Positions 4,746-12,762 of a stretch of 32,000 bases of DNA are shown in pieces. Positions within the stretch are counted from its first letter, which is position 1; each line of letters opens with the position of its first letter. Location of the stretch: NCBI GenBank assembly GCA_038889235.1, contig JAWAHN010000001.1:884499-916498 (forward strand), written 5' to 3'. Source of the DNA: Candidatus Jordarchaeales archaeon. Its GTDB lineage: Archaea > Asgardarchaeota > Jordiarchaeia > Jordiarchaeales > Freyrarchaeaceae. The notes beneath the pieces were generated by a model that ran no database searches, was not told the DNA's origin, and was given only the letters and a program-made list of their open reading frames with translations. A program made the position numbers and the translations under genes.

Positions 4746-5462
4746 TCAGATGGATTTTATTTTTCCTTTGTATGCCAATATGCTTTGGATCAACATTGAG
4801 GCGCCTAGTATAGCTGTCGTGCTTGGAAGCACATTGAAAAAGCTCAAGGAGAGTAACGTTCCTCCCAAAGTTAGAGACAAATTAGATCCCTTGCTTCCTT
4901 TTCTGTGGAAAGAAGGCTTCTTAGAGCGCAGCAGATACATTTCTATTTCTTTTGCATTAAGACGATGTGAGAGTAATTTGACAAGTTTGTTTTTCTTCCA
5001 CTTTATCGATGCAATCTCCATGTGGCGTTTCGCTAAGTTATATAGCTGAACACGTGTAAGCTGGTATAACATTTGCTCTTTTACGCTGAAAGTTTTTGTT
5101 GCAGGCTTACCTTCAATAAGTGCAGAACACGAGAGGTAGAGAGTTAAGAACGCTATCACAAGGCTTGGGGTTGCAGCCACGAAGCTTGGGAAAGAGATGA
5201 GCGCATTGCTCCAGACAAACAGTGTTCCAGCCGCGATGGCTAGTATCACAATGCCGTAAAATAGTAGGTCTATAAAGGCGAAGGAGCACGCTTTTCTGAG
5301 GACATAGCTTAGACCTGTAAGCGAAATCGTTGCACCTATTGTGGTCGTCAACAAGGATTCATAAGAAACCATGAAGCCAGTAGTCTGCAAAAGTAATCCC
5401 GTTAATAGGAGCGCCCACATCTGTTTTAACGGCGTAAAATCACCGATAAGCTTCTCCCACAT
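4746..5462 (-). CDS. Hypothetical multi-pass membrane protein with a Rho_N/HeH-like helical motif
   Basis: About four N-terminal TM segments, then LTRVQLYNLAKRHMEIASIKWKKNKLVKLL, then a C-terminal hydrophobic hairpin. Start set at ATG 5462 (GAGGTG SD). Confidence 0.65.
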   Translation of the reverse strand: MWEKLIGDFTPLKQMWALLLTGLLLQTTGFMVSYESLLTTTIGATISLTGLSYVLRKACSFAFIDLLFYGIVILAIAAGTLFVWSNALISFPSFVAATPSLVIAFLTLYLSCSALIEGKPATKTFSVKEQMLYQLTRVQLYNLAKRHMEIASIKWKKNKLVKLLSHRLNAKEIEMYLLRSKKPSFHRKGSKGSNLSLTLGGTLLSLSFFNVLPSTTAILGASMLIQSILAYKGKIKSI

Positions 5463-5718
5463 ACCTCCCCACCTCAGAAAGGAATACACTAACAGTGAAT
5501 ATGAGTTTAGTTTTCGGGAAAGAGGTAATGAAGACTAAGGAACAAAGGGACGCTATTTTTTGGAGCGATTTAACCTCTCGAATTTCCACGTTTCAGTTTA
5601 GGTAATCATTAGTTCAGTGATGAGTGGAGAAGGTACCTTATAAAAGTTTTCTGTTCTAATTTTTAGGGAACGCTCTACGTAAGGTGTGTTGAGTACAAGT
5701 TGAGCACTCAATGGAGAT

Positions 5719-5734
5719 ACGCAAAGTTCAAATA
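5719..5734 (+). promoter_or_regulatory. Putative BRE/TATA promoter of the H/ACA RNA
   Basis: ACGCAAAG-TTCAAATA lies ~30 nt upstream of G5758, where the GC-rich structure begins. Confidence 0.5.
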
Positions 5735-5757: not shown

Positions 5758-6064
5758 GGGCTCCCCGTCGAGGGCTAGCTGACTGCCCATAGACGGGTGT
5801 GAATGAAGCTTAGAGCAAGAGGGGAGCTACACATTACGAAGGGGAAGGGCGCCGCGTAAAAACCCACTTGAACGGGCCCTCATCGAAAAAAGGGCGTTAA
5901 GCCCTAAAGATGAGGTGGGGCTTACCCAGGTGGGGGACAGCGGCCTGGAACGCCGGGTAGGTGGCTCCCAGGTCTGAGAGCACGGTTGAGAGGGGCGTAT
6001 GCTCCGCTGTGAAACCGTGTGTTAGTTACCTAGGGAACACCGGCGTTCCCCTTCCCCTTCAACA
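5758..6064 (+). ncRNA. Multi-hairpin box H/ACA pseudouridylation guide RNA (3 hairpins plus clamp helix)
   Basis: Hairpin 1 (5759-5831) and hairpin 3 (5966-6039) each have a P1 stem followed by ACA, an internal pocket and a K-turn. Their pockets pair with the 23S at 12304-12317 and 11730-11741. Hairpin 2 (5863-5939) is similar but has no assigned target. Confidence 0.85.
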
Positions 6065-6141: not shown

Positions 6142-6456
6142 TTGCCTAAAAGAAAAGAGAAGGAAGAGATGCTTGAGGTAAAGGATGTAAGAATACCCAT
6201 GGAAGGGGAAGTTTTAGGCGTAGTTGAGAGGATGGTTGGCAATGATAGGCTTATTGTTAACTGTGCGGATGGCAAAACCAGGCTTGCAAGGATTAGGGGG
6301 AAATTCAAGAAGAAGGTTTGGATAAAAAATGGGGATGTCGTGCTAGTAGCTCCCTGGGATTTTCAGGACGACCGAGCAGATGTTATATGGAGATACAGTG
6401 AGGGAGAGGTTAAATGGTTGAAAAGTAAAGGATATCTTAATGGTTTAGAAGTTTAA
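6142..6456 (+). CDS. eif1a: Translation initiation factor aIF-1A
   Basis: EGEVLGVVERMVG..RLIVNCADGKTRLARIRGKFKKKVWIKNGDVVLVAPWDFQDDRADVIWRY. Confidence 0.96.
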   Translation: MPKRKEKEEMLEVKDVRIPMEGEVLGVVERMVGNDRLIVNCADGKTRLARIRGKFKKKVWIKNGDVVLVAPWDFQDDRADVIWRYSEGEVKWLKSKGYLNGLEV

Positions 6457-9341
6457 CTTTTGCCGGCGTGACGAATATACTTTAAGTATTTTTCAACGAA
6501 TTCTGGTTTTAAGTAAAAGAGTATTGTTAGAATTATTGTGGTCAGTAGCAGCATAGTGGATAATTGAGTGCATGATTGGTTAAGCTCGTAATGTCTTAGT
6601 ATGGCTTGCAAGATAGGAGGCGATAAAGCATAAATGTTCACTCCTTCGGGGGGAACAACTTCTAGGAGTAGTGAAAAGGTTACGTTTTCTCCATAATCAT
6701 CTGTGGCTTTTATCGTTATGTTTAGTACACCGGTGTAAGTAGGTGTGATGTAAGCCACGTAAACGTTCTCTTCTTCACTTTTTTGCGGCTCAAGAAGCGT
6801 TGTCCCATTTACTATAATACTGATGTCACCAGAGAAGTTTTTCGGGCTTGAAGGTGGGGAATATCCAACCCACACTTTTATGGTATGTGTTTTTCCTAGG
6901 GTCAGTTTTTCATTCGGTTGAATAATGGCTGCAGTTAGCTTATAAACGCGGAAAATGTAAGTAGTCTCGCCGGTGGGACTGAAACGTCTCTCATGGTGAA
7001 TTGTACCATCATAACTAACTATTCTCAAAATGTATTTTCCAGCATCGGTGGGCGTGAAGTTAAAAGTGAAAGTAAAGTTACCTGAGGGAGCCGCTTGAAA
7101 GTCTCTCTTTGAGCCGTTAGGCAACACTATTGTAGCGATAACTGTTTCAGGGTTATCTAAGAAGTTTCCTACTACTATAGCTAGTTCCCTTCCAACGTGA
7201 CTGAAGTCGTGCGTTACACTTAGCTCGGGAAGAAGCGATATTTCTAGATCAAGTTTGCTTCCGTCTGCAAGCAATGGAATGTTTTCGCCTTTTAGTACGA
7301 GTAGGCTGCGAGTTGTTTCGTTTAATGAGAAGTCAAGCCAATCTTCACTTGGAGAAGAATTCAAGACTACATTCTTGACGGCGTATTTTGCAGGGTAGTC
7401 GAGCTTTATGAAGCTTTGTTCAGGAAATATGGTGCTTCCATTGTGAGTGTAGTTATACAAAATTTTTGATGTATCAAACAAAGCGACGTCCTTTAGGGAT
7501 AACTTTGCAAAAGCAAATACGATGAGGCTTTTTTCAACCCAGCCCGATGTATCTTTGAGTTCAACCAGGAATGATACCTCCCCTTCAGACTTATCGTAAC
7601 TTATCTCGTCAGTAGTGAAAGATTTCGTGTAGCCGTTTCCAATCATTGAAGTTAGCTTTGTACCGTTCAAATAAAGCGTGTAACCGCTGAGATTTCCAGT
7701 GTAGTTCACGTAATGAACAATGTATGACACACTGTAGTTTAGCTGTGTGATGGCAGTTACAGAGATAGTTACACTACCATTCACTGGAGCTAACCACAAG
7801 CTGCTGTTCCAGGATAGGTCGTTGCGGACTGGTGTGCCATTAACGAGAAGGAGGAGGTCGTTGAGAGCACGCCAGCTTGTGTAGTCTGGGGCAATTTTCA
7901 TGCAATGCCAGTACCGGTTTCCATATGGGTCTCTTGCATCTAATACCCAACTAGCCCCTCCATCGGTAGTCCAAATCTCGTACCCAAATTCGGGAACTCC
8001 CTCATTAGTTCCCTCCATGTGGCTTCCCCAATCATAGTAGCCGCCGTTAGTTGAGGGAAGCCAGTCTTTCACGTGGAGCACGAGGAAGTATGCACCAGCG
8101 GATAAACTTGAGGTGAAGTTTAACGTCACCCAGGAATAGTTGGAAGATATGAGTGACGGAGGAACATCTATGCTTTCTATGATGGTGCCGGGAACCCAGC
8201 GGTTACCGTCGAGAGTAGCATTACGTAGCTCCGCGGTTAAGTTAACGTTCATTCCAAAGTTAGCTAACGGAACGGAAATGCTAATCCGGTTTACGGCTTT
8301 TCGGAGCAGGAACATTTGCGCCTCTCCCATACTCCCATTTATGCGAGCATAACCTCCGCTATTCATGCGATCTTCTAGAGTAGTCCACACTAACCCCGGT
8401 TTTATGTTTGAGAGGGAAAAAGATGCAGAGTAAACTCTATTACCGGGAACATCGACGGAAAAACTTCCGTTCAGCATGTCAAGTATTCCGCTAGCGCTTC
8501 CCAGGGTGACGCCTTCACATATATCCAAGCATAGATAGTCTAAATCCCAGCCGGGAGGCAAGTTAAACTTGAATCCATCGTAGACCATTAGACTGATATT
8601 CATCCAGCAATCATAATTAACAAGCTCCCATTTGGAAACATCGTTAAGATCGTCAAAGGACATAAAGTTATTCACGAACGCAAACCCTGCGTCGCCATAG
8701 CTGTCTGCCGTAACATTCCAGCCGAAGTGCGTTTCACTAGTTGTGTTTGCATAAACGACAATGAAGAAGATGCCGTCGCATGTATCGGAAACATTTAAAG
8801 TAACAGGAGACTCGTTCAGGAAGGTTACCCATCCAGGCGAGGATGGAACCATAGTGCTCGAGTAAGACTTCTCAATCAAAGTTACGTTCGGCACAGGTAA
8901 GCCGTCTCTGAGCGTAGCATTCCTTAATTGAACGACAAGGCCAACGGCTTCGCCTTCTCCATCTCTCCACAAATAAAGAGAGACTCCAGTAAAGTTTACT
9001 TTTAAACCACCCACACTTGATATGTTAAAGGACATGGCTACAGATTGGTTTGACGATGCAGAACAATTCACCGACAAATATTCGTTTCCATAAAGATTTT
9101 CTTCAAGCATCAATGTTACTGGCTTGCTCGTGCTAAACGACGAAAAGTTTATCCAATAAGCGGAAAGCGTTACCTCAGCACTAACAGGAGATTTTCCTAT
9201 CAATGTGGGAGCCACTAGGCGAGTATTATCGCTCTGTAAATTAGGGAACAAAGGAAACACCGAAACGGATAACAGAACTTGAATCATGAAAAGTGAAACA
9301 AGTAAGGTCAACGTTGCAGCAACAACCTTCTTGGCCTTCAA
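6453..9341 (-). CDS. Large secreted/surface glycoprotein with duplicated beta-sandwich modules and a C-terminal TM anchor
   Basis: N-terminal signal/TM (KKVVAATLTLLVSLF), many N-x-S/T sequons, two LRNATL...VP...WVT..F modules, C-terminal TM followed by a basic tail. Confidence 0.8.
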   Translation of the reverse strand: MKAKKVVAATLTLLVSLFMIQVLLSVSVFPLFPNLQSDNTRLVAPTLIGKSPVSAEVTLSAYWINFSSFSTSKPVTLMLEENLYGNEYLSVNCSASSNQSVAMSFNISSVGGLKVNFTGVSLYLWRDGEGEAVGLVVQLRNATLRDGLPVPNVTLIEKSYSSTMVPSSPGWVTFLNESPVTLNVSDTCDGIFFIVVYANTTSETHFGWNVTADSYGDAGFAFVNNFMSFDDLNDVSKWELVNYDCWMNISLMVYDGFKFNLPPGWDLDYLCLDICEGVTLGSASGILDMLNGSFSVDVPGNRVYSASFSLSNIKPGLVWTTLEDRMNSGGYARINGSMGEAQMFLLRKAVNRISISVPLANFGMNVNLTAELRNATLDGNRWVPGTIIESIDVPPSLISSNYSWVTLNFTSSLSAGAYFLVLHVKDWLPSTNGGYYDWGSHMEGTNEGVPEFGYEIWTTDGGASWVLDARDPYGNRYWHCMKIAPDYTSWRALNDLLLLVNGTPVRNDLSWNSSLWLAPVNGSVTISVTAITQLNYSVSYIVHYVNYTGNLSGYTLYLNGTKLTSMIGNGYTKSFTTDEISYDKSEGEVSFLVELKDTSGWVEKSLIVFAFAKLSLKDVALFDTSKILYNYTHNGSTIFPEQSFIKLDYPAKYAVKNVVLNSSPSEDWLDFSLNETTRSLLVLKGENIPLLADGSKLDLEISLLPELSVTHDFSHVGRELAIVVGNFLDNPETVIATIVLPNGSKRDFQAAPSGNFTFTFNFTPTDAGKYILRIVSYDGTIHHERRFSPTGETTYIFRVYKLTAAIIQPNEKLTLGKTHTIKVWVGYSPPSSPKNFSGDISIIVNGTTLLEPQKSEEENVYVAYITPTYTGVLNITIKATDDYGENVTFSLLLEVVPPEGVNIYALSPPILQAILRHYELNQSCTQLSTMLLLTTIILTILFYLKPEFVEKYLKYIRHAGKS

Positions 9342-9699: not shown

Positions 9700-12762
<3,063 letters not shown>

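Follow-up and report, generated by a model that had tools for sequence, protein, structure and literature searches.

A predicted H/ACA guide hairpin in a Jordarchaeales genome whose pocket fits two uridines of 23S rRNA helix 69

Modifications in helix 69 (H69) of 23S rRNA influence subunit joining and decoding. Among archaea, one H/ACA RNA aimed at this helix is known as Pab40 (HgcG, RF00064), P. furiosus Pf7 or A. fulgidus Afu4, and its third motif in Pab40 makes Psi2016 (1915 in E. coli numbering, used below) with canonical geometry (PMC2377435, PMC2584109). In Haloferax volcanii the homologue of Pf7 stem III, sR-h45 SL2, makes both 1915 and 1917, so that one pocket with an enlarged unpaired segment of four target bases serves two H69 uridines (PMC7075261). 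Sulfolobus islandicus has the atypical guide sR148, without lower stem and ACA, whose single 3' strand makes Psi2060 and Psi2066 (1917 and 1923), 6 nt apart in H69, as proven by deletion; Psi was mapped in H69 of that organism solely at these two positions (PMC11077068), and Psi1915 is therefore not obligatory. A reading of S. acidocaldarius Psi2060 and Psi2066 as 1915 and 1921 was ruled out, as these are also 1917 and 1923, and the four Sulfolobaceae 23S sequences checked have C at 1921.

Eukaryotes modify the stem of this helix as well. Yeast snR3, a two-hairpin snoRNA without K-turn, guides 25S Psi2264 (human Psi3747); yeast Psi2258 is position 1915, which places Psi2264 at 1921, and loss of Psi2264 alters kanamycin resistance and H69 reactivity (PMC2794176). 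In the archaeal literature on the P. abyssi, H. volcanii and S. islandicus maps we found neither Psi1921 nor a guide for it, the mapped Psi there being at 1915, 1917 or 1923. A literature search for Asgard H/ACA guides found no publication.

The locus described here lies in a 32,000-nt stretch (the window) of a Jordarchaeales genome of 2.14 Mb that is 95% complete. Three hairpins on the plus strand each end in ACA, and all three are kept in the four further genomes of the window's family. The last of them, hairpin 3, is placed in the intergenic gap upstream of the aIF-1A gene, 3.6 kb from the sole 23S gene detected in the genome. The pocket of hairpin 1 (5760..5831) matches 23S U12309, which is E. 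coli 2496 and the Pab40 motif-1 site, with 5+7 pairs at -22 kcal/mol, and Rfam gives this hairpin a weak HgcG/Pab40 match. For hairpin 2 (5863..5941) the motif ACGG/ACCC, taken at the level of the family, points to U12398-99 (E. coli 2585/2586) as the candidate site. The order 2496, 2586, H69 is that of Pab40, with the motif-2 site taken from the family motif and P. abyssi 2588 equated with 2496 on the basis of 2678 being 2586 (PMC2377435, PMC2584109). About 25 nt upstream of hairpin 1, a BRE/TATA-like island, AAAGTTCAAATA (5723..5734, plus strand), is conserved in five of five family genomes and is the probable promoter from which the three-hairpin RNA would be transcribed. In the MFE fold a long-range helix (5838..6059, pairing 5838-54 with 6041-59) encloses hairpins 2 and 3, and the complementarity of its arms is retained in relatives.

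Hairpin 3 has the lower stem, internal pocket and upper stem of an archaeal H/ACA hairpin. Its lower stem P1 pairs 5966-73 with 6028-36 (5' strand 5966..5973; 3' strand and ACA box 6028..6039, with A6032 bulged and ACA at 6037-39). The pocket is formed by a 5' guide strand, PS1, CUGAGA (5974..5979), derived from the family consensus RAGAGA, and a 3' guide strand, PS2, GUUAGUU (6021..6027). Above it (5980..6020) stand P2, with eight pairs from a basal G.U upward (5980-87/6013-20), a K-turn made of GA 5988-89, GA 6011-12 and a UGU bulge, and a cap stem (5992-96/6001-05). P2 and the tandem G.A give 10 layers above the pocket, where 9-10 are expected, and both K-turn GA are invariant within the window's family. 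The initial annotation had drawn P1, P2, K-turn, cap and ACA in the same way, and its coordinates are correct throughout. The folding z-score is -3.9, with 0 of 200 shuffles equally stable. The pairs are kept in 96% of cells across five family genomes, with three pairs doubly changed, against at most 50% for slid control structures, in sequences that are few and related.

Judged by sequence and fold, hairpin 3 is an archaeal H/ACA pseudouridine-guide hairpin for 23S helix 69, with expression, Cbf5 binding and pseudouridylation predicted. The genome encodes cbf5, nop10, gar1 and l7ae. As is established for the class, L7Ae would bind the K-turn, and Cbf5-Nop10-Gar1 would bind P1 and the ACA box.

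The RNA has in common with Pab40 the three hairpins at 2496, 2586 and H69, the basal G.U followed by GUUA, the K-turn and the ACA. The RF00064 model, built from Euryarchaeota, scores 11-18 bits in the window and at most 52 in other Asgard genomes, below its gathering threshold of 77 bits, and we treat the window RNA as homologous without assigning it to the Rfam family. The sub-threshold Rfam matches in the window are to Pab40/HgcG, third motif included, and orthologous loci match RF00064 with E of 3e-8 and 3e-6. An Rfam match to Pyrobac-1 spans the K-turn stem alone and was rejected. We assign hairpin 3, by this comparison, as the third motif of a Pab40/Pf7/Afu4-family H/ACA RNA and as the predicted orthologue of Pab40 motif 3, Afu4.3 and sR-h45 SL2. 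Models of hairpin 3 match 101 of 150 Asgard and 61 of 150 Thermoproteota genomes, nearly always in single copy, and once in the window's genome; pattern-selected metagenome matches, which formed part of the training set of model R2 and bias counts toward GAGAGA, are excluded from the tallies. RNA class and family are thus already known. What is new is the pocket, which appears to have drifted toward U1921 in the window's lineage.

The target region in H69 spans 11725..11741 (plus strand), with U11729, U11731 and U11735 at positions 1915, 1917 and 1921. The pairing proposed earlier, UGAGA (5975-79) with 11737-41 and GUUAG (6021-25) with 11730-34, is borne out: it gives 5+5 pairs, two of them G.U, around the unpaired UN of U11735-C11736, where at least eight pairs are required. 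Alignment to E. coli rrlB likewise agrees that U11735 is position 1921 (the E. coli base there is G), the position of yeast Psi2264. The ACA lies 16 nt from the target U in both registers described below (15 without bulged A6032), as annotated, at the top of the 14-16 range. U11735, at -12.4 kcal/mol, ranks first among the canonical sites for this pocket in 16S and 23S rRNA. Equally good canonical sites occur in 3-5% of shuffled rRNAs, a figure that overstates the case because a near-repeat in the helix by itself supplies every helix-69 guide of this family with about 4+4 pairs at U1921. Some features speak against the U1921 site. One G.U lies within each duplex, the 16-nt spacing compares with 14-15 nt in active Pyrococcus guides (15 +/- 1 is accepted), and a Freyrarchaeum-type member of the family (G004) has merely 5+4 pairs there. 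As canonical targets U1917 and U1923 were rejected, the 3' strand failing beyond one pair. G6025, which pairs with base 1916, was given little weight in favour of U1921: from family to family it fails to follow base 1916, and it usually pairs atop P1.

The two pocket strands can also pair with each other. The MFE fold joins CUGA to UUAG, with a PS1-PS2 self-pairing probability of 0.9-0.97 at 37 C and 0.5-0.6 at 70 C, and the genome-wide target search proposed in the initial annotation found 105 sites equal to the U11735 match, as expected for 10 bases, besides a weaker canonical site at U11604. The pocket might on these grounds be degenerate, closed by self-pairing, or acting on another RNA. 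We regard this as very improbable, as no member of the window's family departs from GAGA and GUUAG, which are conserved across two phyla, and no site in 16S or in the 14 unspliced tRNA genes detected by ARAGORN is better than U11735.

Helix 69 contains a near-repeat at a distance of 6 nt, UAAC-U1915 and UGAC-U1921, and PS2 can therefore dock in two registers. GUUA forms Watson-Crick pairs with all of 1911-1914; at the cost of one wobble it also matches 1917-1920, extended by the following G to 1916-1920. Register B is the canonical one at U11735, with UN free. In register A, at U11729, PS2 forms four pairs (and two more past a G.G mismatch), PS1 forms 3-5, and 5-6 bases are looped out, at -10.3 kcal/mol with six unpaired bases or -12.9 if the basal G.U is opened (cost 1.4); all register energies are for the duplex only at 37 C, ignoring junction geometry and proteins. 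The earlier claim that the target is distinct from the H69 loop sites loses its support here, since GUUA also matches U11729 and hairpin 3 belongs with guides of Psi1915 and Psi1917, most of which pair best in the 1915 register. A genome scan and models, which atypical guides would escape, found no further classic H69-loop guide in the 95% complete genome.

The pockets of the orthologues define the family's usual target. PS2 starts with GUUA in nearly all of them. Among the orthologues inspected, 41 of 55 from Asgard archaea and 37 of 50 from Thermoproteota have NAGAGA as PS1, and this strand pairs 5-6 bases with 1920-1926 including U1921 itself, and just four with 1923-1926. In family f7 the rRNA has C1910 and G1920, and the guide, GAGACA with GUUAG, pairs 1920-24 and 1910-14, which destroys the U1921 register; G077 (U1920) is the exception. 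The guides of family f5, whose rRNA carries C1921, form a flawless canonical pocket of 6-7 pairs at U1915. This covariation indicates that the family target is U1915, usually with five unpaired bases. All other correctly parsed Asgard genomes favour register A, mostly by 3-6 kcal/mol; the energy rows of G282, G251, G287, G018 and G122 and of six unparsed genomes were read by eye from the alignment.

Hairpin 3 could accordingly keep the family function and nothing else, making Psi1915 (possibly also 1917) across a wide loop, the U1921 match being a by-product of the near-repeat. The engagement of U1921 itself by NAGAGA in most orthologues fits this account, as do the f7 and f5 pockets. The two G.U at U1921 are unimproved in 29 loci and four variants of the window's family, which also retains U6026-U6027, pairing with 1909/1908. 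We nevertheless think this rather unlikely. It leaves PS1 with three pairs unless the basal G.U opens, and opening it leaves a K-turn stem of 9 layers, a length found to be non-productive in the case of Af4.3 (PMC4652768). Nothing obvious would prevent modification at the canonical 5+5 site.

In the window's family PS1 is one GA repeat shorter than in the sister family, and the rRNA has C1916, which the other Asgard families checked do not. Three members have an assembled target, and in these the energies prefer register B by 1.1-3.6 kcal/mol. In G001-G003, PS1 is extended to UUGAGA, the same strand as in Ignicoccus, with 6-7 pairs at U1921. The lost GA repeat and C1916 both favour register B, which argues that the RNP would most likely make Psi1921, and would still make Psi1915.

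A full retargeting, in which hairpin 3 makes Psi1921 only and Psi1915/1917 are absent or come from an undetected guide, has the following in its favour. U11735 alone combines the canonical UN geometry with 10 layers, G001-G003 share their PS1 with Ignicoccus, and Psi1915 is not obligatory, judging from the S. islandicus map. PS2, however, keeps GUUA and not GUCA. Guide activity depends chiefly on the 3' duplex, and this is still perfect at 1911-1914. No substitute H69-loop guide was found, although atypical guides would escape detection. We consider full retargeting unlikely.

The reading we prefer, tentatively and at somewhat less than an even chance, is that hairpin 3 is a two-register guide through which both U1921 and U1915 would be modified. 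The canonical register B would act on U11735, and the inherited register A, with its wide loop, on U11729 and perhaps then on 1917. We favour this because of the six-base-slip precedent of sR148, the lack of another classic H69-loop guide in our searches and the presence of the four core protein genes. Register A is close in energy to register B (-10.3 or -12.9 against -12.4 kcal/mol). B-type pockets recur in other archaea, while for register A there are the orthologues that make Psi1915 and the f5 and f7 covariation. On the other side, the 5-6 base loop exceeds the four bases proven functional (PMC7075261), and PS1 and PS2 are able to pair with each other. Overall, Psi1921 is probably made by hairpin 3. 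The initial annotation's guide assignment to U11735 thus holds for the best canonical site, which has counterparts in other archaea; this site is likely a lineage-derived or additional target and is not established.

Compared with Pab40 motif 3, the canonical match here is U1921, and the 1915 match needs the 5-6 base loop. The two sites of sR-h45 SL2 share one register, whereas the candidate sites in the window are 6 nt apart and use two. The likeness to sR148, one 3' strand for two H69 uridines 6 nt apart, is one of geometry; homology is not claimed, and the sR148 sites are 1917 and 1923. With snR3 only the target position is in common, and no sequence relationship is claimed.

Pockets of the U1921 type are present elsewhere. 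PS1 matches 1923 onward, and not 1920-24, in Staphylothermus hellenicus (UUAAGA), Pyrolobus fumarii (UAAGA), Pyrodictium occultum (AAGA) and Desulfurococcus mucosus. In Ignicoccus islandicus UUGAGA and GUCAG give 7+7 pairs at U1921, and register A, with two 3'-side pairs at U1915, is unusable. A second Asgard lineage (G014, with H69 unassembled) has UUAAGA. The orthologues in Ignicoccus, Staphylothermus, Pyrolobus and this second Asgard fit 1921 clearly better. Their orthology rests on model scores of 2e-7 to 4e-3, single copy and a position beside tyrS/pheT, a neighbourhood also found in the GAGAGA-type Methanosuratincola; in G014 the basis is the intact arrangement of three hairpins.

These pockets raise the possibility, which we hold with considerable reserve, that archaea, too, carry Psi at the yeast-2264 position and that it had more than one origin there (in the window's Jordarchaeales family, a second Asgard lineage and Desulfurococcales), by a six-base slip of the ancient Psi1915 guide along the H69 near-repeat, through a two-register state of the kind proposed for hairpin 3. 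If true, this would show concretely how an existing guide can give rise to an H69 stem modification of the eukaryotic type, and a real archaeal Psi1921 would carry that mark into Asgard and Thermoproteota. Its physiological effect is probably small. The family supplies natural intermediates of guide retargeting, and in most orthologues from Asgard archaea and many from Thermoproteota the unpaired target loop seems to comprise five bases, above any shown to date.

Several minor observations accompany these results. The pockets of L389 (Caldarchaeum subterraneum), L295 and L292, CCUUAAG with GAGUUAG, may be directed to U1923 (yeast Psi2266) in a third register. Some Thermoproteota (L229-L253; G255, G209, G339) have the 3' strand GAUAGG, with a second-position mismatch in both registers. 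Insertions shortly after H69, after 1924 or 1928, occur in the 23S genes of many Asgard archaea and some Thermoproteota (L067/L076, L068, L069, L070, L072, L374, L375, L378, L379); exon junctions may therefore fall where the 5' guide strand pairs. U11604 (E. coli 1775) shares the UGAC-U context and has 5+3 pairs with the pocket; we presume that it may correspond to yeast Psi2133. The targets of yeast snR3 include Psi2133 (PMC2794176). A K-turn-like hairpin at G000:C2:35430-35510 that also matches U11735 and U11604 was rejected, as it lies inside the rpS28e coding sequence.

In hairpin 2, more than two unpaired target bases are apparently required at 2585/2586, and its sequence departs from relatives, with UUGAACGG here against UUGACGG, and UACCC against AACCC, in other families. 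The cbf5 gene (G000:C1:835691-836673) has a short frame-shifting insert with a helix-bulge-like fold exactly at the catalytic motif, which probably corresponds to the intron described in crenarchaeal cbf5 genes. In the assembly the 23S (G000:C1, 896 kb) and 16S (C2, 20-22 kb) genes are on separate contigs and unlinked. Elsewhere in Jordarchaeales the three-hairpin RNA lies within a few kb of 23S, sometimes just past it (L056/L278 in G006, L076/L096 in G008, L055 in G004). One genome of the window's family encodes the aIF-1A of Ca. Freyrarchaeum guaymaensis. The flanking open reading frames at 6453-9341 (962 aa) and 4746-5489 (247 aa) gave no Pfam or NCBIfam match, and the 962-aa frame is syntenic across the window's family.
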